From sequence record PZ168832.1: a stretch of DNA of 64,000 nucleotides; one strand, given 5' to 3'. Within the stretch, counting starts at the first letter, position 1. Every line of letters begins with the position of its first letter. Below are positions 16,392-53,391 of this stretch, piece by piece. The DNA comes from a phage. The notes below the pieces were generated by a model. The model was not told the origin of the DNA. It was given only the letters and a program-made list of their open reading frames with translations, and ran no database searches. Made by a program: the position numbers and the translations under genes.

Positions 16392-16416
16392 TTATAATTA
16401 CCCACCGTTACTAATA

Positions 16417-16440
16417 GGCCGCGCTTAGTCGCGGCTTTTC
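16417..16440 (+). terminator. rho-independent terminator (ggccgcgcttagtcgcggc plus tttt)
   Basis: Read directly after 16182..16391. Confidence 0.45.
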
Positions 16441-16561
16441 TTCGTCCCTATTTCGATGCGCTTCTCCGCGAAAACTCCTTTATCCTTCCCTTCGTCGTCG
16501 CATAATCTTCTTCGAGATGCTCCTTAGTTCGCATAACAGGTATTACGTTAAATGGAGAACA

Positions 16562-16823
16562 TCGCGTAAGTCCTTGTTTTATATAGACACCTATATCGGA
16601 CCGTTAGGGCGGGTCGCGTAAGTCGTTGTTTTATAAAGGCGCAAAACTTTCCCTTCGTTCCGAACTAAAACGAGGAATATGCCGACCCTTCGTCCGAAAA
16701 TAGTACGCATGCGAAATTACATGCATCTAGAATAATCCCCACCGATATTATCCTACACGCAATCATTCGCTTTCGAATCATTATGCTTCATATTGTTATG
16801 CGTCAAATCATTCGCTTTCGAAT
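16562..16823. repeat. direct repeats in an ORF-poor region: tcgcgtaagtc(c/g)ttgttttata x2 and atcattcgctttcgaat x2
   Basis: Copies at about 16562/16614 and 16762/16807; the second contains palindrome attcg-cttt-cgaat. Confidence 0.4.
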
Positions 16824-17095
16824 TGTAACGCTGGAAACTGTAACGGCTATTGATTATTGCGTTCGTGTGGTTTTTATGGCATGGGTCTTTTGGTGCGTTT
16901 TGGTACTTGATGGAATTTGCGGTACACTAATCAAAATACGACACATTTGGTCCACTAACTTTTCAAAGAAAAAGTCCCAGACAGTACCGTACTATTTTGT
17001 ACCCACAGTAAATTTGCAGTACACTCCTGCGCGGCAGGCAAAATAAAGGGCCGCCACAGCGACCCACGATTCACGGTTAAATCAACAAGCACCCA

Positions 17096-17542
17096 CTATT
17101 CACTCTTATGGGCATCACCAAAGCCATCCGCAATCTGGCTGATCAGCGATTCAATGGACACAGTTTTACCAATTGATCGAGCGGTAATAGCAAGCATATT
17201 ATCAATCAAACCATGATTGGATGCATATGATCCAGGTTTTGAATCATCTTCAGAACAACCAAAAAGCTGGTCGCGCAGACTTTCAAGAGAACGCTCAATA
17301 TTTTCCAACTTCTCTTCTAAATCGGATTGGCGACGTAAAACCCACGTCAAGTCACGGTTGCCAACTTCCAATCCATCAGAATAGCAAGGTGGAGCGTCAA
17401 TTTTGATGCTGGAACCAAAAGCAATGCCGCTGCCTTTAGTATATGTGTGACTCATAGAATCATTTTTATTTGACATATCGTTACCTTCAATATTTGGGTG
17501 ATTAACAATAAGTATAATAAAGCCGCATAGCGCGGCATTCAA
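17096..17542 (-). CDS. hypothetical protein (start possibly at internal MSNKND)
   Basis: ORF track. Confidence 0.4.
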   Translation of the reverse strand: MNAALCGFIILIVNHPNIEGNDMSNKNDSMSHTYTKGSGIAFGSSIKIDAPPCYSDGLEVGNRDLTWVLRRQSDLEEKLENIERSLESLRDQLFGCSEDDSKPGSYASNHGLIDNMLAITARSIGKTVSIESLISQIADGFGDAHKSE

Positions 17543-17551
17543 ATCGATTTA

Positions 17552-17800
17552 TTAATTGTGACGATTGGATTCATCAATCGATACCAATTGTGCAGGGTCG
17601 CCGGATACAGTTGCGCCGATGATGCCCATCTGAGAGAAAAATTCTGAATAAACTTCCTTCCAGTACTTACGCGCTGCTTTCTGGGCTTGTCCTTTGCGCT
17701 TGAAGCTTTTGCCTTGAAAGATGAAACGGTCTTTTGGCGCGGAATACTCCACCACACCTTCCAGCCATTGTAAGAATGCTACTGATTCATTTTGATTCAT
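17552..17800 (-). CDS. hypothetical protein (82 aa)
   Basis: ORF track. Confidence 0.35.
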   Translation of the reverse strand: MNQNESVAFLQWLEGVVEYSAPKDRFIFQGKSFKRKGQAQKAARKYWKEVYSEFFSQMGIIGATVSGDPAQLVSIDESNRHN

Positions 17801-17807
17801 ATAATCC

Positions 17808-18209
17808 TCAATATTTTAATAAGAAAGCGCCCAACCAACTTTCCTCAATCTCGCGGCCAGTAGCCACACGGTCGGTCTTTGCTATGGGTCTGGATTCGCC
17901 GCAGGGTAATCCGTCTTGTAGCTGTGTACTATTGCCAATTCTCACCAAAACCTTTCCATCAGGGTCGATATAAGCGCGACAACCCATGATTTCGAGTCGC
18001 TGTAGACACTGGCGAATCGTTTTCAGCTTCTCACCGGACCGGATAGAGCGTGGTCGCGACCGCGACCGCTGACCGTTCTTATTCACTGTACGCTTGAAAA
18101 CCGGAATATCATTGGTGCGTTGTGGCTTGGGTCGGTAGTAGGCTTCTTCACCAGGAGTTGCGCCTGGTGTCAGTTCGCGCTTAAGCGCCTTTTCGATATC
18201 GATGATCAT
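17808..18209 (-). CDS. hypothetical basic protein (133 aa)
   Basis: ORF track; Arg/Ser-rich segment. Confidence 0.4.
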   Translation of the reverse strand: MIIDIEKALKRELTPGATPGEEAYYRPKPQRTNDIPVFKRTVNKNGQRSRSRPRSIRSGEKLKTIRQCLQRLEIMGCRAYIDPDGKVLVRIGNSTQLQDGLPCGESRPIAKTDRVATGREIEESWLGAFLLKY

Positions 18210-18303
18210 AATTCATGCCGCAGCAGCATGGATGATTGCGTAAACAATTCCAAACAGGGCGACAACACAAACAGTGCCCCAAAATGCAAAGCGTCGTGAC
18301 TCT

Positions 18304-18525
18304 TTATCCATTGTCCACCGCCCCAATATCAGTTAAGAACTCGTGCAACGCGCCTTTCTTATTGAGTCTTTGCATAGTTTTGATATCATCAAGCGATATA
18401 CTCTGATCACTTTGCTGTTTATCTATGCAGACAAGGCCGCCTTTCTTAGCCTTGATTGTCATGCCTTTGGCTTCAATACTTTTTACGAAATCGGACAATA
18501 ATTTAATTTCCATAATACACCTCAC
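18304..18525 (-). CDS. hypothetical small protein
   Basis: ORF track; track start is GTG, ATG four codons in (MEIKLL). Confidence 0.35.
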   Translation of the reverse strand: MRCIMEIKLLSDFVKSIEAKGMTIKAKKGGLVCIDKQQSDQSISLDDIKTMQRLNKKGALHEFLTDIGAVDNG

Positions 18526-18594
18526 TTGTTAACGTATAATGAGTATAACTTAATAGCCCATAAAGTAAAGGCGCTTTTCAGCGCCTTGAGTGAA

Positions 18595-20952
18595 TTATTT
18601 CGCTGCTTTCAGCGCGGCTATCTCTGCCTTGAGTTCATCTATCTGATCCATCAATGCAAGAATAGCCTCGTGGTGCAGTGCTGCTGCTACACCTGGTGTG
18701 TTGACAGATTTTATGTTATCCAACGTCGAACCGTCGCGCAGAGTAACAGGCGATGACTGTGTTTCAGATACTGCTTCAGGAAAGTCTTTCTCTACATCCT
18801 GGGCGATGAAGCCAAAACCGACGGAGCCATTAGTTTCCAGAGTCCATGCCACGCCTCTGATGTTGCGCATCTTGACAAGTGGATCAGTGATCCGCTCAAT
18901 GTTACTTTTAATACGTTCATCAGATATACTCCGCCACTCCTGACACCTTGCTATTCCATCGGAGCCAAAAAGATAAGAGGCCGCGCCGCCTGTCCCGCTG
19001 TAAACGTTCAATTGCGCGCGGTCCAGCGTGGTCGTGCTACTCCTTATGCCTCCGAGAATCCAGCTTCCACTGTACCAGTCACCGCTGATTGAGTTTACAA
19101 AATTTCCTTCTGGAACGTTGGCATAGTTTTGAATCCTTATGGCGTTGTTTTCTGCAGCAGCAACGCCTACTGAATTAACTGGGGATGCAACAAGGTCTTT
19201 AGACCGGATATATGCATCAACAACTATTGTCCCATCAGGGCGCAGAGTTCCAATCTGGGATGTGGAATTCGGCAACACCAATTTGCCATCTTGGTTAAAT
19301 GCCCACTCTTGCACCCCATTAGATATCACAGCACCTTGTTCAGACGTCAATCCATCAATTTTGCCGTATGCCTGCAAGAATGCTTGATACGCGATGTTCG
19401 TGCCAATCTTATATTCAGATTTTACACTACCGCCTCTGACAAGCATTCCGGCTGCAGGTTTTACTGCGTCGCCGTTAATCACACTCCAAGAAGTATTCGC
19501 GGCAACAAATCCACCCGATGCACGAATCACCCAAACGCCAACAAAGTTGCGACCCATGATTTCGTCAGTTGCCGCTCCATAAATCGGGCTTGATCTGGAT
19601 GCATCAATATTTATTGTATTGAGACGCCCCTCTACTGCCCCGCTTCCAACAGGTATGGTGTCGCCAGCGCCTTGGGGGTACAAATCGTTGTTTGTGTAAA
19701 AAGCACCTCGGACGGCTGTGCCAAAGATTTGCGCATAAGTGCCTGCCGATACACCAGCGGCTGAGCCTGTGATGTTTGGTGCAGCAGATTCAAATATTTG
19801 ACCGTTCGCAGTGGAGTTGCCGCCATCACCGCGCCCGTAAAGCGCCCGTACAGAGCCTGTCTGAACACCGTTAAGGTCTGGGACACGGAATGTCGTTGTG
19901 CCGTTACCTGAAGAATATTTTGCACGTTTGAACTTATCCGCAAGCCAGTCGGCATCTGCGATGGGCGAAAGCATTTGCGCATACGCCCAAAGTTCAGGCC
20001 AGTCAGCACGGTTTAGCAATTGCCCGTCTGCAACGACTTCGTATGGCTGAATATATGATCTACTATTGCGAAGATGGAAATCGCCAACACCATAGTTCAT
20101 GACGCCGTTCATACTTGGACCAACGGTGCCTGTGTTTACTAAGTTTTCAACCCAACGCTTAGTCGCGGCATCATAATCATTTACAGGGTCGCCAGCGAGC
20201 GGCGTTGATCCTTGTGGACGGATGTTTAGCCACGCCTGAGCATTATCTGCAGAGCCTGTGCCGCCCATTGAAGTTGGAACGATGCTCTGATCAGCAACAG
20301 GGCCGAATCCAAAAGCAGACTTCATCCCTTGGATGGTAGTTTGCCCTGTGCCGCCGTTGGCGACTGGGATGACAGATTTACTGTTGTATAATTGCGCCCA
20401 TTGACTCCAAACCCCATTTACCGCGTTGTAAGTCCTTTGGTATGTAACATTGTTGTAATATGTTGAGTATCTTTGGACGCAACTTTCTATTGATGGTCCA
20501 GTTTTTAGGACTTCAAGGACTCCTGCTTGTGAAACTGGGTAATTAAGAACAGTCTGAGCATCTGCATTGAAGTCTTGGAAATAATTTCCAAACCAAGAGC
20601 CTGTCAGAAAGTTGAGATTTATCCCAGAAGGAAGTTTGCCATAATTTCTTACAACCCCTGTTAAGGTCGCAGCAGTGTTACGAATAGAAAGCATGTCACC
20701 AGCAGACCATGCACGCGCTGCCGTACCTTCTTGTGCGCGCTGCACGGTCAGGACGTCTCCAACCACGGCTGTCACTGTGACAATTTCGAATTGGCGGCCT
20801 GTTGCAGCGTCGACGATTGTCGCCACTACACGCTCGTTCGCGCCCAAGGTCGGAAATCCCGACCCTGAGCGAATTGTGATTGTGGTGTCTGAAGTCGTCG
20901 TTGGTTGAGCCAGCGCGACCTCAAAGTTGTTTTTGAATATTAGCCTTGGCAT
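18595..20952 (-). CDS. tail spike/fibre with C-terminal intramolecular chaperone (peptidase S74-like) domain
   Basis: 785 aa; fibre-like Gly/Ser/Thr/Asn-rich repeats, YDAATKRWVEN motif; C-terminal SDERIKSNIERI...GFIAQDVEKDFPEAV followed by a coiled-coil tail, the hallmark of self-cleaving chaperone domains. Confidence 0.8.
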   Translation of the reverse strand: MPRLIFKNNFEVALAQPTTTSDTTITIRSGSGFPTLGANERVVATIVDAATGRQFEIVTVTAVVGDVLTVQRAQEGTAARAWSAGDMLSIRNTAATLTGVVRNYGKLPSGINLNFLTGSWFGNYFQDFNADAQTVLNYPVSQAGVLEVLKTGPSIESCVQRYSTYYNNVTYQRTYNAVNGVWSQWAQLYNSKSVIPVANGGTGQTTIQGMKSAFGFGPVADQSIVPTSMGGTGSADNAQAWLNIRPQGSTPLAGDPVNDYDAATKRWVENLVNTGTVGPSMNGVMNYGVGDFHLRNSRSYIQPYEVVADGQLLNRADWPELWAYAQMLSPIADADWLADKFKRAKYSSGNGTTTFRVPDLNGVQTGSVRALYGRGDGGNSTANGQIFESAAPNITGSAAGVSAGTYAQIFGTAVRGAFYTNNDLYPQGAGDTIPVGSGAVEGRLNTINIDASRSSPIYGAATDEIMGRNFVGVWVIRASGGFVAANTSWSVINGDAVKPAAGMLVRGGSVKSEYKIGTNIAYQAFLQAYGKIDGLTSEQGAVISNGVQEWAFNQDGKLVLPNSTSQIGTLRPDGTIVVDAYIRSKDLVASPVNSVGVAAAENNAIRIQNYANVPEGNFVNSISGDWYSGSWILGGIRSSTTTLDRAQLNVYSGTGGAASYLFGSDGIARCQEWRSISDERIKSNIERITDPLVKMRNIRGVAWTLETNGSVGFGFIAQDVEKDFPEAVSETQSSPVTLRDGSTLDNIKSVNTPGVAAALHHEAILALMDQIDELKAEIAALKAAK

Positions 20953-20990
20953 TTTACGGTCCTCGTTTTGTCGACAACCGTATTATAACC

Positions 20991-21332
20991 TTAATTTCTT
21001 TTGAGAGGAATATGACGGTGGCTGCCATTATTTGGTTTAATAATGAGCATAAAAACGATTAGAAAGATGATGGCTGATATACTTAATTCAATCAGCGCGG
21101 CTTGAGATATGGATTGGTCTTCGTGATACTGCTTTTGCATTTCCGCTTTCTTCTGAGCGCAAACTTCAGGTGATATATAATCGCCTTTTGAGTTGCCATA
21201 ATAAATCTCGCCATTCTCAGAAATAAGTCTGCCGCAAATATCAGTTTCAGCCTTTGCGCTTGACATCATAATGACGGTGCCGATGATAGCGGCAATTGTC
21301 CAGATTAGCAGTTGTGATAAAGTGTTGTTCAT
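20991..21332 (-). CDS. small membrane protein (N-terminal and C-terminal hydrophobic segments)
   Basis: Track ORF 20991..21566 trimmed to internal ATG (MNNTLSQLLIWTIAAIIG...); hairpin cccttcccacatcgggaaggg just upstream. Confidence 0.4.
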   Translation of the reverse strand: MNNTLSQLLIWTIAAIIGTVIMMSSAKAETDICGRLISENGEIYYGNSKGDYISPEVCAQKKAEMQKQYHEDQSISQAALIELSISAIIFLIVFMLIIKPNNGSHRHIPLKRN

Positions 21333-21528
21333 GATGACCTCTTTAAATTCCCTTCCCACATCGGGAAGGGTGAATATTATTTTAAACGAAAGAATAGGCG
21401 CGTGCCACACAGAGAGTCCCAACGGCCTTCGCCGTCCCATATCGAACCAACGCCAGCAGTGATTGGGCCAGCAGAATTGGCGGCATTGGCCCAAGCGAGA
21501 CGTTTCAACTTCCAACTGCACCAACGAT

Positions 21529-21792
21529 TCACAGTTCACCTCCAGATTGCAAAACAAGTCCCGCATAGAGGATTGCTAAAGCTAAAGGCGCACCACTTCC
21601 AGCTTCTCTATTCTCTTTGATTTGAAGAGTGTCCTTAAGGAATTGCAGCTGAACGTTGAATTCATTTTCAATTCCAAGCACTCCAGCTAATTCTTTTACA
21701 GAATCTGCATATGCCTTGTCTAGCACTTCTTTTGGTACTGTTAAAGTCAATTCATTTGCCATTTTCTTTCCACTCCACAAATGTGCTGCCAC
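21529..21792 (-). CDS. hypothetical small protein
   Basis: ORF track; probable start at MANELTL. Confidence 0.35.
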   Translation of the reverse strand: MAAHLWSGKKMANELTLTVPKEVLDKAYADSVKELAGVLGIENEFNVQLQFLKDTLQIKENREAGSGAPLALAILYAGLVLQSGGEL

Positions 21793-21973
21793 TTGTTTCT
21801 CTATTTAGCAGGTATCTGCCGCGCATTCCATGAAGGCTGAATTCAACCGTCGATGGATTAGATTTTGAAAGCCACATCGCTTGACCGTCGAATGGTCCGC
21901 CAACGCATGTGTATTTGGCTTTTGGCTCACTCCTTTTGGGCCGTTTTGCCCGCTCTTTGATTGATAGTCTCAT
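21752..21973 (-). CDS. hypothetical small basic protein
   Basis: ORF track. Confidence 0.35.
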   Translation of the reverse strand: MRLSIKERAKRPKRSEPKAKYTCVGGPFDGQAMWLSKSNPSTVEFSLHGMRGRYLLNRETSGSTFVEWKENGK

Positions 21974-22188
21974 CAGTCTTCACCTTGAGATTCAAGACAA
22001 GTAAGAACAAGCCATGTCATCGGAAGAATCAAAACCAGAGAAATAAGGGACCAGATGGACCAGCACAAGATGACAGACTTGAATGTGTGAACGTCGCCAA
22101 ACGCAGCAGTGAAACAAAATCCCATCACGAAAGCAAGCGCGGTGGAGTGGTTATCAATGGCTTTGATGGCACGGTCGATGAGTTTCAT
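21973..22188 (-). CDS. small membrane protein (two predicted TM helices)
   Basis: ALAFVMGFCFTAAFG and WSLISLVLILPMTWLVL hydrophobic stretches. Confidence 0.4.
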   Translation of the reverse strand: MKLIDRAIKAIDNHSTALAFVMGFCFTAAFGDVHTFKSVILCWSIWSLISLVLILPMTWLVLTCLESQGED

Positions 22189-22277
22189 ATTACCTCCGGT
22201 TTTGAGTTAATATGATTATAACGCAGAGCTTCAGAAAGGCAAACTTTTTGTGAATTTATGCCGTCCATGGCAAATGA

Positions 22278-22508
22278 TTAGTGAGAAGACACGACTAATG
22301 TGCCGCTTCCTTTCGCGAAAATCTCAACACCTGGCGGGATTGTGACCGTGCCAACCACTGCGATTCCGATCAACTTGTCATCGGCTTTTTCTTCGAAACA
22401 GATCTCTGCGGCACCGCCGCGAACTTGAATAAGTGCGCCTGATACGTTTTCAGCAACAGAAAGAACGGAAGTGTAAGATGGAGTGAGTTGAATATTTACT
22501 AGGGCCAT
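22278..22508 (-). CDS. hypothetical protein (76 aa)
   Basis: ORF track; hairpin plus T-run (minus sense) immediately upstream of its RBS. Confidence 0.4.
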   Translation of the reverse strand: MALVNIQLTPSYTSVLSVAENVSGALIQVRGGAAEICFEEKADDKLIGIAVVGTVTIPPGVEIFAKGSGTLVVSSH

Positions 22509-22626: not shown

Positions 22627-24087
22627 ATGAATAAAATATTAACACATAATTGGAAAGTCATGTACCAGTTGAATCCTGCTTTAAGAGAAGTCTGGAAGAC
22701 GAAAGCGCGATACAAAGTAATATACGGCGGTCGTGCATCTTCCAAATCGCATGATGCCGCTGGTTTTGCTATTTATTTGGCGGCAAACTTTAAATTAAAA
22801 TTCCTTTGCGTTCGACAATTCCAGAACAAGATTTCTGAATCAGTATATACGCTATTAAAAGACAAAATAGAAATTTCTGATTTCAAAGATGAGTTCAACT
22901 TGTTAAAGAACTCCATTGAACACAAAAGAACAAAATCTGAATTCTTATTTTACGGTATCGCACGCAACGTTGACGAAATCAAATCAACAGAAGGCGTTGA
23001 TGTTCTTTGGCTTGAAGAAGCGCACGCACTTACTGAAGAGCAGTGGGACATCATTGAGCCGACAATTCGTAAGGAAGGGTCCGAAATATGGATCATATTT
23101 AACCCTGATGAAGAGGCTGATTTCGTCTACCAGAACTTTGTTATGCGACCGCCTAAAAATGCCATCGTTAAGAAGATTAACTGGCAGGACAATCCATTCT
23201 TGTCGCAAACAATGCTGGACGTTATCGCTGGCATGTATGAGCGCGACCCGAAAAAGGCAGAACACGTTTATGGCGGAGTACCGAAGACAGGCGGCGACAA
23301 GTCGGTCATCAACCGTGCATTCGTCAAGGCCGCACTAAACCTCCACAAACACCCTACGTTGGGATGGAGCTTGTCAGGGTCTAACCGTATAGGCTTTGAC
23401 GTGGCAGACGACGGCGACGACTTAAACGCCACAGCATTTGTCACGGGCAACGTATTGCGCGGCATAAAGACATGGGAAGGTCTGGAAGATGAATTGCTTA
23501 AGTCCGCAAGCGGAGTTTGGAAAGATGCATTAACATTCGGCGCATCAATTACCTATGACGCCATCGGTGTTGGTGCATTTGCTGGTTCAAAATTTGATGA
23601 GCTTAATGAGTATGCAATCCATGAAAATCCAACATTCCCAAGAATCGAATTTAATGCGTTCAACGCGCAAGGTGCTGTTGATGATCCTGATGACGTCTTC
23701 CTTGAGTTACCACACGTTGAAATACTCAATAAAGACCATTTCGCAAACATAAAAGCGCAAAAATGGACTGAGATTGCCGAACGATTCAGGAAGACATATG
23801 AGTATGCAACAGGGCAGGCCGTATACCCGACTGATGAGCTGATTTCCATCGACACAGACGGCATTCCAGAACTTGGGATTCCTGCTTGGTCTGCGGAAGA
23901 AATTGAGACATTTCTTTTTGAGATGTCAGCGCCGCGCAAAGACACGTCTGTGCTTGGTAAGTTTAAAGTTGAATCGAAAAAGGATATGGCAAAGCGTGGA
24001 GTCAAATCGCCTAACAAAGCGGACGCAGCAATCATGGCGTTGATGAAACCAATTGTTGCAGCATCCGGCTTCTTCTCTAACCTTTAA
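22627..24087 (+). CDS. terminase large subunit
   Basis: 486 aa; Walker A-like YGGRASSKS near N-terminus; ATPase-then-nuclease layout; true start may be the second in-frame ATG (MYQLNPA) because TATAAT abuts the first ATG. Confidence 0.8.
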   Translation: MNKILTHNWKVMYQLNPALREVWKTKARYKVIYGGRASSKSHDAAGFAIYLAANFKLKFLCVRQFQNKISESVYTLLKDKIEISDFKDEFNLLKNSIEHKRTKSEFLFYGIARNVDEIKSTEGVDVLWLEEAHALTEEQWDIIEPTIRKEGSEIWIIFNPDEEADFVYQNFVMRPPKNAIVKKINWQDNPFLSQTMLDVIAGMYERDPKKAEHVYGGVPKTGGDKSVINRAFVKAALNLHKHPTLGWSLSGSNRIGFDVADDGDDLNATAFVTGNVLRGIKTWEGLEDELLKSASGVWKDALTFGASITYDAIGVGAFAGSKFDELNEYAIHENPTFPRIEFNAFNAQGAVDDPDDVFLELPHVEILNKDHFANIKAQKWTEIAERFRKTYEYATGQAVYPTDELISIDTDGIPELGIPAWSAEEIETFLFEMSAPRKDTSVLGKFKVESKKDMAKRGVKSPNKADAAIMALMKPIVAASGFFSNL

Positions 24088-47875: not shown

Positions 47876-49663
47876 ATGCCAACACTTATTAACAGACCTT
47901 TCGCGCAAAGCGGTGATGTATCCGTGGTGCCGGATGCAAGCCCAAGTGGTTATGTGAACTTCCAGCGCGGATACACCCCTGACTATGCGCTTGCTCTGGC
48001 GGCTGGAAACGTCTCCGCGAAAGCTGTTGAGCGCGAATCGATGAACTGGTTGTTGAATCTGATTACAGACAACCTTATGTTTATTCAAGATCATGGCGCT
48101 CAACAATATTTCTCTTCTGACTTGAAGCCGGATGGATACCCGAAAAACGCCATCGTAGTAAGCAACTCTGGAACTCCTTCAGCGCCTGAATGGCGCATTT
48201 TCCAGAGCGTAGTTGACGGAAACACAAGCGCCGTCCCGGCCAACGGAGAAACGGAATCTTGGCAGGAATTAACACTGCCCAGCGAAGCGCGAAAATACAT
48301 TCCTATGCCTGCTGGCGGCGATGCGCAAAACCCGTATTTTGTTCGCGGATTGATTTCAAGTGTTGTTGACTTTGACAATATCACGACTTCCACAACTATC
48401 GTGATTCAATCCGATGCCGTTGCCGCTCTGTGCTCTAACATACCGAATGCTGTTGGCGCAACGAAGGTTGCAGGTCGGCTGCAGGTATGCGCTTGGCAGG
48501 TCGATGAACAAACCTTTGCCTTGCAGCAATATACATCAATGAATGGCTATTTGTTTACTCGCTCTTATACTTCTGGTGCTTGGAGTGCTTGGATTCAAAA
48601 TGCCACTGTTCAAGACGTTCAAATTGGAACGCCGAATCTTGCATCAGGTAAAGGAGCGCAAGACATAATCCTTACCGTCCCAGCAGGTTATTCATGGCCT
48701 CCGTCAGCAGGTAGTCGCCTGACAATCGTCAATGATGTGACGACTACCGGACCTGTCACTGTGACCATTGGTGTAAACAAAGTTGCCGTTCTTGGATTCG
48801 ACGGCAGCGAGTTGCCAGCTGGCGCTATCGTAGGCCTGTTGCCATTCACCATCATCTATGACGGCACTGTTTGGCGTCTTCTTCAGGCATTCGGCGCGGC
48901 GCAAATCGGCGTTGATGCTACGGAGCCGCAGCAGTTTGTTACCAAAAGGCAACTTGACGCGCTTGCCGCGAAGTTGATTACCATGGGTGACGTATTCGAA
49001 GTCGGTGAGACTCGATTCCTTACCAACGGGACCAACCCGAATACTAAACTGGGCGCTTACGGCCAGGTATGGACACGACTGCCTGATAACATGGTGATTC
49101 GCACGTCCGGCGCTGCGCGAAACGGTCTTGATACAGGCGGAGCAGACTCTGTTACTCTCACCGCCGCCATGCTTCCTCTCCATAATCACAGCGTGAACAT
49201 TACCACGCGACAAAGTGGTCCATGGTCCAATACCACTGGAGACGCAGGCAACCATAACCACACAGGCGATACCAGTCAAAACGGCGCTCACGTGCACGGA
49301 ATGGACACGGCAGGCAACCACCATCATGACAGTAGCTGGGGTGAAGCGAATACGAACGATGCACGATACGGCGTTTATGATGGAACACACAACAACTTCG
49401 GAAGTCGAAAGGGCGGCGACTGGGACAACTACAAATACAACACTTCAACCAACGGCAACCACGTCCATAATATTCAGTCGTCTGGATCACACACCCATGG
49501 GTTGAATATAAATTACGCTGGCAATCACAGCCATAGCTATACCCTTCCCGCTCACACTCACGATGTGGTCGGTAACACTGGCAACGCAGGGCAGTCCGTT
49601 CCAACGGCTGTTTCAACCCTGCCGCGATATGTCGTCTTGAACGGCTGGTACAGAAGCGCATAA
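47876..49663 (+). CDS. tail fibre protein with His-rich H-x-H repeats
   Basis: Track ORF 47819..49663 trimmed to ATG with agaggaa RBS; C-terminal HNHSVN...GNHNHTGD...HVHGMDTAGNHHHD...GNHVHNIQSSGSHTHG...GNHSHSYTLPAHTHD. Confidence 0.65.
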   Translation: MPTLINRPFAQSGDVSVVPDASPSGYVNFQRGYTPDYALALAAGNVSAKAVERESMNWLLNLITDNLMFIQDHGAQQYFSSDLKPDGYPKNAIVVSNSGTPSAPEWRIFQSVVDGNTSAVPANGETESWQELTLPSEARKYIPMPAGGDAQNPYFVRGLISSVVDFDNITTSTTIVIQSDAVAALCSNIPNAVGATKVAGRLQVCAWQVDEQTFALQQYTSMNGYLFTRSYTSGAWSAWIQNATVQDVQIGTPNLASGKGAQDIILTVPAGYSWPPSAGSRLTIVNDVTTTGPVTVTIGVNKVAVLGFDGSELPAGAIVGLLPFTIIYDGTVWRLLQAFGAAQIGVDATEPQQFVTKRQLDALAAKLITMGDVFEVGETRFLTNGTNPNTKLGAYGQVWTRLPDNMVIRTSGAARNGLDTGGADSVTLTAAMLPLHNHSVNITTRQSGPWSNTTGDAGNHNHTGDTSQNGAHVHGMDTAGNHHHDSSWGEANTNDARYGVYDGTHNNFGSRKGGDWDNYKYNTSTNGNHVHNIQSSGSHTHGLNINYAGNHSHSYTLPAHTHDVVGNTGNAGQSVPTAVSTLPRYVVLNGWYRSA

Positions 49664-49671
49664 GGTGATTT

Positions 49672-50316
49672 ATGATTAATGCAAACGTAATATCTAAAGG
49701 GACCGGATGCAGCATGGATGTCGCAGAGAAATGGGTGGACCCTTTCAAGCAGGCTTGTGAGCACTACGGAATCAAAAGCAAGAATGCCATCGCGGCATTC
49801 CTTGCAAACGTAGGAGTAGAGACAGGCAGCTTGAGAACATTTGTGGAAAATCTCAACTACTCTGCACAGGGTCTTGCCAACACGTGGCCTAGCCGTTACA
49901 GCGTCAGCGGTCGTTTCGGTGGCGCACCAAACTCCTTGGCGTTGTCGATTGCCCGTAAACCAATGGAAATCGCCAATAATACATATGCAAACCGAATGGG
50001 AAATGGTTCGGTAGCATCTGGCGACGGTTGGAAGTACCGTGGCCGTGGTGCCATTCAGCTGACTGGAAAGGACAACTATGCAGAGTATTCAAAGCAATCA
50101 GGGTATGACGCCTTGAATAACCCTGACATTTTGACTGAGCCGAAATACATCGCTGACAGCGCGGCGTGGTTCTTCAAGAACAGCGGTTGCATTCCACTTG
50201 CCGATGCGGGTGCATTTGATTCGACCGTGAAGCGGATTAACGGGGCCGCGCCGAATACGGCTAACCATGGGGATTTGCGACGGAAGCGTTACAAGGATGC
50301 ACTAGCAGTTATGTAA
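49672..50316 (+). CDS. endolysin, glycoside hydrolase family 19-like
   Basis: 214 aa; FLANVGVETGSL and YRGRGAIQLTGKDNY resemble GH19 chitinase/lysin motifs. Confidence 0.75.
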   Translation: MINANVISKGTGCSMDVAEKWVDPFKQACEHYGIKSKNAIAAFLANVGVETGSLRTFVENLNYSAQGLANTWPSRYSVSGRFGGAPNSLALSIARKPMEIANNTYANRMGNGSVASGDGWKYRGRGAIQLTGKDNYAEYSKQSGYDALNNPDILTEPKYIADSAAWFFKNSGCIPLADAGAFDSTVKRINGAAPNTANHGDLRRKRYKDALAVM

Positions 50317-50341: not shown

Positions 50342-50572
50342 TTATTTCACGGCTTCAACCTGGACTGGCGGCGCGGAACTTGTATCAATGTCTGGCAAGT
50401 CGAAGTAATACCCCGCCATGCCAATCACGCCAACAATCGCGGCCCGTGCCACCTTGTTGCTAATTGACTCCCCAATAAGCTTTACCAACAGGGACAAGAT
50501 TTGAGACGTCAAAGCCTTTTTCAGCCTTTTGTTTTCTTCCAAATCTTTCTGCATAACTACCACCCATGTCAA
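50342..50572 (-). CDS. small protein with one TM segment (76 aa)
   Basis: AAIVGVIGMAGYYF hydrophobic stretch. Confidence 0.35.
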   Translation of the reverse strand: MTWVVVMQKDLEENKRLKKALTSQILSLLVKLIGESISNKVARAAIVGVIGMAGYYFDLPDIDTSSAPPVQVEAVK

Positions 50573-52252: not shown

Positions 52253-52876
52253 TTATTGTCCTGTAACTTCTCTGATCACACGGTCTTCAAGTTCCAGCTT
52301 CTTTACCATTTTGCAGGAGTGCTCATAAGCTGGATCAGTCGATTTGATAAACGTGCCGTTGTACATGACACCTTTGCGGTCCTTGATGTCTTCGTAGGCC
52401 GCTTGCGCACAGTCGGATAATCGAAGGCCATAATCATGAGCTACGCCGGAAAGGTAATCGACTGCGGCCATGATAGTGACGTCAATATCCATGGCCTGAT
52501 TCTTGGCAATAGCATCACCAAGTCGTCCAAGGGTCTTTGCCAGGCGAAGGATAAATGAATGAGGGTGAGCGCCCTTATCAGCGCAACCGCCGCCATTAAT
52601 GTTTTCGATTTCAGTACCGTTTTGCGCTGCCAGGATGGCCAACACAACAAGGCAATCGCCGATGTCGTCCTTAATTGCCGCCTGCAAGTCACAGATGGCC
52701 TGCTCTGTATATCCAATTTCAGGGTCAAAGAACACAAGGTCATGGAGTTGATCAACGTGGTCGGTTAACTCCCCAAACTCGCTGATAAGCTTCGGATATT
52801 GGTCTTTAAGGTCGCAACCTTGGATGATGTTACGGTCAGAAGCCCACTGGCGAATGTTTGCATAAATCTGGTTCAT
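52253..52876 (-). CDS. possible MazG-like nucleotide pyrophosphohydrolase
   Basis: 207 aa; KLISEFGELTDHV resembles the EExGE-type helix; weak call. Confidence 0.3.
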   Translation of the reverse strand: MNQIYANIRQWASDRNIIQGCDLKDQYPKLISEFGELTDHVDQLHDLVFFDPEIGYTEQAICDLQAAIKDDIGDCLVVLAILAAQNGTEIENINGGGCADKGAHPHSFILRLAKTLGRLGDAIAKNQAMDIDVTIMAAVDYLSGVAHDYGLRLSDCAQAAYEDIKDRKGVMYNGTFIKSTDPAYEHSCKMVKKLELEDRVIREVTGQ

Positions 52877-53391
52877 TTATTTTCCTTTGATGCATTTAAT
52901 TGATCGATTTTTATTTTAGCCTGATTATAAGTATCAATCAAGCTATTAACTTTCTCTTTTAATCGGTTTGTTTCTGCGGCGAACTGAACAAGAAATCTGA
53001 CATCCTCTTCTGATAGTCCACAGTTTCCTTCTGGGATAGAGAGGCGTCCAGTGGTCGCAGAGTCGGGCACACTCCTGAGTAACTCACGGGAGCAGCTGAG
53101 TTGCTCGCGCAGCTTGATATTCCCAGACTTGTAACGAGCAATAGTGTCATCAGCAACCAGTTGCGCTTCCTGGCGACCCTTCTCATATGCCGATGCCGAT
53201 TCAACCTGTAAAGTTGCAATTTGCTCTTCGAGTGCATTTATCTTGTCCTTACGCTCATTAAGCGATGTCAGATATTGATTATCCTTGGCCAGTGATGCGT
53301 TGGTTTGCTGCAGGTCTTCAACGTATGATCCAGCGGCAAACGCACCAACAAGGGCCAGAATCTTCAGGAGCGGTACAATTCTTTCTATCAT
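52873..53391 (-). CDS. i-spanin-like protein (Rz-like)
   Basis: N-terminal TM (LLKILALVGAFAAG) followed by coiled-coil; contains an embedded +1-frame lipoprotein ORF. Confidence 0.45.
   Translation of the reverse strand: MIERIVPLLKILALVGAFAAGSYVEDLQQTNASLAKDNQYLTSLNERKDKINALEEQIATLQVESASAYEKGRQEAQLVADDTIARYKSGNIKLREQLSCSRELLRSVPDSATTGRLSIPEGNCGLSEEDVRFLVQFAAETNRLKEKVNSLIDTYNQAKIKIDQLNASKENK
52959..53186 (-). CDS. o-spanin-like embedded lipoprotein (Rz1-like)
   Basis: Track ORF 52959..53237 from internal Met: MRRVARKRNWLLMTLLLVTSLGISSC, signal peptide plus lipobox ISSC; entirely inside the i-spanin-like gene in another frame. Confidence 0.4.
   Translation of the reverse strand: MRRVARKRNWLLMTLLLVTSLGISSCASNSAAPVSYSGVCPTLRPLDASLSQKETVDYQKRMSDFLFSSPQKQTD

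Follow-up and report, generated by a model that had tools for sequence, protein, structure and literature searches.

Does a phage gene that lies apart from the tail locus, on the opposite strand, encode a receptor-binding protein, and if so, does the product cut its receptor or only bind it? We asked this of a gene for a 785-amino-acid (aa) protein in sequence record PZ168832.1, a stretch of phage DNA 64,000 nucleotides long that was analysed as a whole and is called the window here. The gene belongs to a minus-strand run of 12 co-oriented open reading frames (ORFs) at 17096..22508, which an earlier note, made from the sequence alone, had described as a receptor-binding cassette: a self-cleaving tail spike together with small membrane proteins. 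Our analysis indicates that the product is very probably a lateral tail fibre of a Wifcevirus-type myovirus, the variable one that determines host range, equipped with a self-cleaving chaperone and with Escherichia coli O157 as its most likely target. The feature itself is already known, being annotated in GenBank relatives and published as to its architecture; what is new is the recombinant allele only.

An ortholog of the Wifcevirus T-shaped fibre

The window region is 91% identical in DNA to the Escherichia phage ECML-117, and its aligned parts are 88-93% identical to about 30 other Wifcevirus genomes; the window accordingly belongs to an E. coli myovirus of the Wifcevirus type. Head and tail genes occupy the plus strand at 22.6-50.3 kb, among them those for the sheath, the baseplate, a structural protein of 912 aa, a fibre of 614 aa and the endolysin, and the fibre genes of the tail locus, at 45.1-49.7 kb, are on that strand as well. 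The minus-strand block is flanked by the plus-strand terminase gene (22627..24087) on one side and by a non-coding stretch of about 700 bp on the other. Hence the block is indeed transcribed opposite to the structural operon and apart from the fibre genes at 45-49.7 kb, as the earlier note had it. In the Mansfield record, the direct terminal repeat of 3.7 kb has its right end at a point that corresponds to about 16.87 kb of the window; once the genome is packaged, the block would therefore sit immediately inside the left repeat.

The fibre ORF starts with an ATG preceded, 8 nt upstream, by a GAGGA ribosome-binding site, and the presence and features of the ORF and of the block are far beyond chance. 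The PHROG family phrog_6921, 'tail fiber protein', covers the full length of the 785-aa protein (E=2.5e-257). In 14 relatives, including ECML-117, WFC, vB_Eco4M-7 and Bas98-101, the syntenic gene carries the annotation tail fibre protein; the WFC and vB_Eco4M-7 records name the Peptidase_S74 domain explicitly. A search of NCBIfam gave no match for the fibre. Over the whole protein, identity is 87% to the ECML-117 and 83% to the vB_Eco4M-7 ortholog, and an identical protein is present on a 66-kb contig of Logan assembly SRR30826622.

Wifcevirus phages carry two fibres, according to Humolli et al. (2025, PLoS Biol, PMC11990801). The variable one, called 'T-shaped', is described there as a conserved N-terminal anchor followed by a Gp12-like receptor-binding domain (RBD1), a T5-like one (RBD2) and a C-terminal intramolecular chaperone. 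The known versions (ManiWeber/Bas99 Gp114, vB_Eco4M-7 gp27, ECML-117 gp24 and WFC gp013) occupy the place of the window gene, with the boundary of the terminal repeat on one side and the terminase gene on the other, likewise on the minus strand, and share its length (about 777-787 aa) and a domain order ending in the S74 chaperone; only the allele differs. Judged by orthologous position, common to the 14 annotated relatives, by the conserved anchor and by a pair of variable receptor-binding regions set off by conserved linkers (column entropy is highest at aa 376-450 and 500-675), the 785-aa protein is an ortholog of this lateral tail fibre.

Each part of that architecture was traced in the window protein (Table 1), with column entropy calculated from an alignment of 104 full-length homologs and region-wise identities from 15 Wifcevirus loci and other phages. 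The anchor is 91-96% identical across the 15 loci, with column entropy near 0. In a search of PDB sequences, aa 4-97 match the N-terminus of 8jov_1, a 'putative tail fiber protein' (E=1.3e-8; a literature search for 8JOV found no paper), and aa 104-225 match the knob region of the R2 pyocin fibre, 6ct8 (E=8.4e-6); NCBI names relatives 'pyocin knob domain-containing S74 family peptidase'. RBD1 is clearest, since aa 233-518 match residues 539-825 of DT57C LtfA (8hqz_d) with E=3.7e-115 when the whole sequence is used and E=5.7e-144 in a profile search.

For some parts of this description the searches fell short. The RBD1 profile reached DT57C LtfA only among PDB sequences, and no T4 gp12 chain; Pfam Collar scored 17.8 bits against RBD1, below its 24-bit cut-off. 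The Gp12-like nature of RBD1 is supported by published HHpred and InterPro results. Likewise, T5 pb1 was not among the PDB sequences that a C-terminal profile detected, and the AlphaFold2 (AF2) monomer, built on a 61-sequence alignment, is poor (mean predicted local distance difference test, pLDDT, of 50.9) and thus no guide to the T shape, a T5-like RBD2 fold or a lectin fold. A poor monomer is as expected for an interdigitated trimer. Confidently modelled are only the knob (block-mean pLDDT 67-86 over aa 101-190), aa 500-560 and the chaperone domain; pLDDT is below 50 over aa 561-675.

Table 1. Features of the fibre gene, its block and the tail locus (window coordinates)
Feature	Position	Strand	Basis or remark
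Lateral ('T-shaped') tail fibre gene, 785 aa, 83.3-kDa precursor	18595..20952	-	Pfam, PHROG, orthologs
Conserved N-terminal anchor domain, aa 1-100, presumed baseplate attachment	20653..20952	-	conservation, 8jov match
Pyocin-type knob, aa 101-232, moderately variable at aa 125-200	20257..20652	-	6ct8 match
Proximal receptor-binding domain RBD1, LtfA-like / 'Gp12-like', aa 233-505	19438..20256	-	8hqz_d match
Hypervariable insert in RBD1, aa 376-450	19603..19827	-	entropy, identities
Distal receptor-binding domain RBD2, aa 506-677, candidate O157-antigen binder	18922..19437	-	identities to O157 phage fibres
Catalytic Ser-Lys dyad codons, S677-D-E-R-I-K682; predicted scissile bond between S677 and D678	18907..18924	-	invariance, EP335 site
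Intramolecular chaperone domain (Peptidase_S74), aa 678-785, predicted 11.7-kDa released fragment	18598..18921	-	PF13884
Terminator-like hairpin, 8 nt after fibre stop	18568..18587	-	WFC record annotates terminator there
Terminator-like hairpin after block end	17048..17065	-	follows the last small genes
Sigma-70-like promoter match, TTGCCT-16-TATAAT, upstream of 71-aa gene	22215..22242	-	consensus match only
76-aa accessory protein	22278..22508	-	present in 4/15 genomes
71-aa membrane protein, hydrophobic segment aa 39-57 (Kyte-Doolittle 2.3), acidic end	21973..22188	-	96-100% conserved, dN/dS 0.04
73-aa basic protein	21752..21973	-	phrog_12090, E=2.3e-28; 95-100% conserved
77-aa acidic protein	21529..21762	-	88-100% conserved, dN/dS 0.12
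51-aa basic protein	21377..21532	-	92-100% conserved, dN/dS 0.06
113-aa membrane protein: signal-peptide-like N-terminus (..SSAKA/ETD), two Cys in mid-part, C-terminal transmembrane segment, basic tail	20991..21332	-	hydropathy
69-aa protein, variable slot downstream of fibre	18304..18513	-	phrog_5649; 6/15 genomes, unrelated to fibre type
Four further small genes (32, 133, 82 and 126 aa) ending the block	17096..18311	-	ORF calls, conservation
Second, conserved tail fibre in tail locus, 595 aa, His-x-His repeats	47876..49663	+	phrog_5717, phrog_4277

A fibre rather than an enzymatic spike

The term 'tail spike' in the earlier note is not borne out. No enzymatic or beta-helix domain was found in the protein, its solved relatives, DT57C LtfA and the R2 pyocin fibre, are fibres, and a central depolymerase or lectin fold, for which we searched by profile and by fold, was not found. 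Specifically, Pfam, PHROGs and the PDB sequence search returned no depolymerase, sialidase, lyase, pectate-lyase, lectin or beta-helix, and Foldseek returned nothing significant: the AF2 model had no PDB match at E<=0.001, the weak top ones being the R2-pyocin structures 6ct8 and 6cl6 and also 3gw6.

These results bear directly on the idea of an enzymatic tailspike, a depolymerase or endosialidase that would cleave capsule or O-antigen. The S74 domain was first described in endosialidases, and the GenBank record of SP13 labels the ortholog endo-N-acetylneuraminidase; that label, however, merely echoes the Pfam name 'Chaperone of endosialidase'. Two Acinetobacter tailspikes are among the weak Foldseek matches (E=0.025 and E=0.57), but neither is significant and both derive from a low-confidence model. 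Against this reading also stand the lack of any sialidase, pectate-lyase or beta-helix family among the Pfam and PHROGs results, the wording of all 20+ annotated PHROG matches ('tail fiber' or 'tail protein'), the fibre nature of the solved relatives, and the published models, which show a fibre (PMC11990801). We regard an enzymatic function as extremely improbable and classify the protein as a fibre rather than a spike.

The chaperone domain and its predicted self-cleavage

In contrast to the spike, the chaperone domain proposed for the 785-aa minus-strand ORF was confirmed. The motif SDERIKSNI occupies aa 677-685, and Pfam family PF13884, Peptidase_S74, matches aa 677-728 at 44.5 bits (E=1.9e-11), well above the curated cut-off of 22. 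Besides the profile score, the S-D-x-R-x-K dyad and the C-terminal position with a long helix identify the domain as a member of this family: S677, D678 and K682 are invariant both in a 61-sequence alignment and in a diverse set of 16 sequences, and AF2 models aa 752-784 as a coiled-coil terminal helix (block-mean pLDDT 78-91). A profile of the last 146 residues matches the solved chaperone domains of DT57C LtfA (8hqz), S16 gp37 (6f45), human MYRF (7dc3) and a GA-1/phi29-type appendage (3gud), as well as 8jov. Family, dyad, position and terminal helix are thus shared with the S74 domains of endosialidase K1F (3gw6), S16 gp37, the phi29/GA-1 appendage and MYRF; the passenger differs, a non-enzymatic fibre tip in the window as opposed to a sialidase beta-helix in the endosialidase.

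A biochemical precedent is gp13 of EP335, whose RBD2 and chaperone domain can be aligned to those of the window fibre without a gap (68% and 77% identity) and which shares the cleavage site CQEWRSxS/DERIKSNIERI (slash at the bond) with it. A fusion of green fluorescent protein (GFP) to EP335 gp13 loses 11.8 kDa by a cut between Ser621 and Asp622, as determined by electrospray ionisation liquid chromatography-mass spectrometry (Witte et al. 2021, PMC8217332). From this homology we infer that the window protein is cut between S677 and D678 into a mature chain of 71.6 kDa and a fragment of 11.7 kDa.

Presence in the virion and fate of the chaperone domain

Whether the protein is part of the phage particle can be answered for its close orthologs, and the answer is positive. 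Mass spectrometry (MS) of CsCl-gradient phage detected vB_Eco4M-7 gp27 by 34 peptides that cover 80% of its sequence, with a score above that of any other protein, and ECML-117 gp24 by 18 peptides (Necel et al. 2020, PMC7048862).

The same data contain an observation that does not sit easily with release of the chaperone fragment. Of about 2,011 mapped peptide-spectrum matches (PSMs) in the Eco4M-7 table, 500 belong to six peptides of the chaperone domain, so the domain was present in that preparation. Per 100 aa, this amounts to 463 PSMs for the chaperone domain versus 225 for the mature part, about twofold, although PSM counts are not quantitative between peptides. The fibre might therefore be incorporated with its chaperone domain kept on the virion, either uncleaved or cleaved but still bound. 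A C-terminal HiBiT tag on gp27, which gave the brightest signal among 13 tagged phages (PMC11074155), could be taken the same way, but the reading was taken from lysed cultures, in which the tagged fragment would glow even if free. Moreover, the Eco4M-7 preparation was not one of pure virions, as it also contained non-virion proteins, among them protease, helicase and endolysin (PMC7048862), and when four conserved chaperone-domain peptide strings were searched for in the ECML-117 MS table, none was found (0/4). Considering also that the EP335 gp13 domain is fully cleaved in the recombinant protein, we find retention distinctly unlikely. A related idea, for which we see only a slim prospect, is that the domain, whether cleaved or intact, remains attached to the particle and caps the distal receptor-binding tip; the over-representation of chaperone peptides in MS of CsCl-purified vB_Eco4M-7 hints at it, and such a cap, if real, would imply regulated unmasking of RBD2. 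The reading we favour remains a fibre whose tip would be freed of its chaperone by self-cleavage.

A mosaic allele with three apparent sources

Variability differs along the fibre. Residues 1-100 are almost invariant, 125-200 moderately variable, 200-375 conserved, 376-450 hypervariable, 451-500 conserved and 500-675 highly variable; the chaperone domain is intermediate, and the last ten residues are conserved again. The hypervariable insert in RBD1 reaches an entropy of about 2.3 bits, with an identity to the query of about 0.26 among the 104 homologs; it is nevertheless 100% identical to WFC and 99% to ECML-117, versus 33-59% or partial coverage for the others.

The region-wise identities point to different relatives for different parts. 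The knob shares 94% identity with that of Ro157lw, versus 55-72% with the others, and RBD1 shares 99-100% with that of ECML-117. RBD2 is 98-99% identical to vB_Eco4M-7 gp27, with 76% to ECML-117, 72% to FFH_1, 68% to EP335 gp13 and 59-62% to Ro157lw, FEC19 and EC150, and the chaperone domain follows it (96% to vB_Eco4M-7 gp27 versus 88% to ECML-117). Read in this way, the allele is a three-way mosaic of a Ro157lw-like knob, an ECML-117/WFC-like RBD1 and a vB_Eco4M-7-like RBD2 plus chaperone, and no GenBank phage record holds this combination. To judge by its high identity to Ro157lw only, the knob region has a recombination history of its own. Synonymous divergence (pS) over aa 233-375 is 0.60, two to three times the 0.15-0.33 of neighbouring genes, which fits import from diverged sources by recombination at conserved linkers. 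Exchange of both receptor-binding domains with the fibres of Tequintavirus and Gordonclarkvirinae is described in PMC11990801.

As a separate observation, aa 126-200 of the knob (20353-20577, minus strand) form a third, moderately variable region with an entropy of 1.0-1.6 bits; in the published description, as far as consulted (PMC11990801), just two variable receptor-binding domains are named.

Comparison with fibres of other phages places the exchange in context. EP335 gp13, the lateral fibre of a Gordonclarkvirinae podovirus, is 57% identical to the window in the RBD1 core, in addition to the similarity of its RBD2 and chaperone given above, but it lacks the Wifcevirus anchor and knob and presumably hangs from gp12, a proximal fibre of the podovirus, instead of attaching directly to a myovirus baseplate. 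DT57C LtfA and FFH_1 ORF131 are fibres of T5-like siphoviruses with different N-terminal attachment parts. ORF131, of 580 aa, follows a separate proximal fibre gene and is 72-85% identical to the window protein over aa 233-785; in LtfA the chaperone also matches. The R-type pyocin fibres (6ct8, 6cl6) have a lectin-like foot and a separate chaperone, whereas in the window protein the knob lies in the proximal half and the tip carries its own chaperone.

The O157 antigen as the most likely target

What does the fibre recognise? The phage vB_Eco4M-7 does not lyse rfbE mutants, which lack the O157 antigen, and complementation rescues lysis; the C-terminal HiBiT tag on its gp27 is tolerated (PMC11074155). 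GFP-gp13 of EP335 binds strongly to O157 strains and weakly to O26 (PMC8217332). Four BASEL isolates, Bas98-101, depend on the O16 O-antigen, as stated in PMC11990801. The RBD2 type of the window is common to the O157 phages ECML-117, Eco4M-7, Ro157lw, FEC19, FFH_1 and EP335 (59-99% identity), and it is undetectable in the fibres of the O16-dependent BASEL isolates and of WFC, WFH, SP13, kaset and Mansfield. The RBD1 inserts, on the other hand, differ among the O157 phages.

Because the RBD2 type is shared by O157 phages while the RBD1 inserts differ, the most likely target of the window fibre is the E. coli O157 antigen, and RBD2, rather than RBD1, would be its main determinant. Two facts weigh against the latter assignment: it draws on a small labelled set of about seven phages with known hosts, and EC150 and phiAPCEc03 carry the same RBD2 type without a host O-type label. 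The comparison yields a testable hypothesis, that the distal domain (aa 506-677) and not the Gp12-like domain reads the O157 antigen.

Taken together, these data suggest how the fibre might work. Three chains would trimerise, with the N-terminal 100 residues presumably fixing the fibre to the baseplate; the pyocin-type knob and a shaft would lead to RBD1 (aa 233-505) and then to RBD2 (aa 506-677). By analogy with its homologs, the last 108 residues would nucleate trimer folding of the distal tip and then cut themselves off after Ser677 by means of the Ser677-Lys682 dyad. The fibre would bind O-antigen without degrading it, probably that of O157 and mainly through the distal domain, after which the invariant second fibre would act on a conserved target. 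New specificities could arise by homologous recombination at the linkers, aa 200-375 and 451-500, and at the last ~10 residues.

A practical use of the allele is to predict that a Wifcevirus genome as yet uncultured or unpublished has a host range specific to O157. A close ortholog has already served as the reporter-tag site in an O157 detection phage, and the three-donor mosaic marks joints that should be usable for fibre engineering, at aa ~200-232, at aa ~451-505 and at the extreme C-terminus.

A second, conserved fibre in the tail locus

The suggestion of more than one receptor-binding protein also held up: there are two, one invariant and one variable, in agreement with the published account (PMC11990801). 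The invariant one, of 595 aa, shows 95-99% identity among 28 Wifcevirus records (a further record has 90%), and hundreds of Pseudomonas phages encode distant relatives of it. Many HxH motifs are visible in its translation, and the corresponding Wifcevirus fibre in the tail locus is described there as having a T4 gp37-like needle tip.

Small genes beside the fibre gene

Five genes upstream of the fibre gene, encoding 71, 73, 77, 51 and 113 aa, are tightly packed or overlapping and are 88-100% identical in protein across 15 genomes. Their dN/dS values of 0.04-0.12 argue that they are real genes. The 113-aa protein is 96-100% identical in 15 genomes (dN/dS 0.04), and the Eco4M-7 record notes a Phobius signal peptide and a transmembrane segment for its ortholog. 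A word-indexed search and an exhaustive one, the latter over 1.8 billion representatives, yielded near-identical Wifcevirus copies of it and no homolog outside the genus; one match to a repeat protein (E=6e-5) was rejected as spurious.

The earlier note had joined the small membrane proteins to the fibre in a 'cassette' and had proposed a role for them in superinfection exclusion or lysis. They are real and conserved, but a functional link to the fibre is not upheld, as they do not co-vary with fibre type, and the exclusion or lysis role, though conceivable, is without support, with no family match and the lysis genes elsewhere. In favour of a functional unit of the fibre with the 113-, 71- and 32-aa membrane proteins (the last a downstream ORF with a single transmembrane segment by hydropathy), one can cite that these genes have the orientation of the fibre gene and are tightly packed with it, that a promoter-like site precedes the group and a terminator follows the fibre gene, and that the small genes encode clear transmembrane segments and are under strong purifying selection. 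Yet a partner of the receptor-binding domain in the manner of T5 Llp-type exclusion would be expected to vary with it, and the 71- and 113-aa proteins are 96-100% identical in phages whose fibres are for different O-antigens and whose RBD2 ranges from 24% to 99%; they are thus not receptor-specific partners.

One of them might instead be the missing holin. The endolysin gene (49672..50316, plus strand) ends the tail operon, an Rz-like i-spanin gene (52873..53391, minus strand) lies 2.5 kb away, and no holin was recognised beside either. The 71- and 113-aa genes are not adjacent to endolysin or spanin, however, and Pfam, PHROG and NCBIfam gave no holin, spanin or exclusion family match for the small membrane proteins. 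The 71-aa protein ends acidic, without the basic tail usual for holins, the 113-aa protein lacks homologs outside the genus, and none of the small membrane proteins was detected in the MS lists. All in all, a functional unit with the fibre, be it for exclusion or lysis, is unlikely; the co-oriented upstream genes would rather be conserved Wifcevirus genes that are not specificity partners of the fibre. Just after the endolysin gene, on the opposite strand, there is a 76-aa ORF with a hydrophobic stretch (50342-50572, minus strand; phrog_5165).

Two further genes of the block have orthologs with MS evidence. Orthologs of the 76-aa accessory protein at the upstream end were detected in CsCl-purified phage, vB_Eco4M-7_32 with 55% coverage and a score of 1002, and ECML-117 gp30 (PMC7048862), and the protein may be a small virion-associated one. 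ECML-117 gp23, the ortholog of the 69-aa protein downstream of the fibre gene, was detected weakly (PMC7048862). The slot that holds the latter gene (18213-18587, minus strand) is filled differently across genomes, by the 69-aa ORF alone, by a pair of 93-aa and 69-aa ORFs or by an ORF of about 95 aa; the version in vB_Eco4M-7, gp26, has 62% MS coverage (PMC7048862). We considered whether the slot ORF tracks the distal domain of the fibre and rejected this, as Eco4M-7 has the same RBD2 and a different downstream ORF. Further downstream, near 17808-18209, a 6-nt indel deduced from gene coordinates separates the Logan contig from the window, with a product of 131 aa versus 133 aa, so the two may not be exactly the same sequence.

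Transcription signals and the non-coding stretch

Gene packing and the two terminator-like hairpins suggest an operon. Together with the hairpin after the fibre stop, the sigma-70-like match at 22215..22242 suggests a single transcript that would begin upstream of the 71-aa gene and extend to the end of the fibre gene, although promoter-like sites were not enriched relative to shuffled sequences (15 found versus 12 expected). A perfect TATAAT at 20983-20988 (minus strand), about 30 nt upstream of the fibre start and at the stop of the 113-aa gene, lacks a -35 element that could be recognised; the fibre gene might have a promoter of its own there.

An Rfam scan of the whole window found no match, and a repeat scan of the window found nothing bearing on the fibre. 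The stretch of about 700 bp that separates the minus-strand block from the small genes on the plus strand (16392-17095) contains short direct repeats, TCGCGTAAGTCnTTGTTTTATAnAG at 16562 and 16614 and AATCATTCGCTTTCGAAT at 16761 and 16806.

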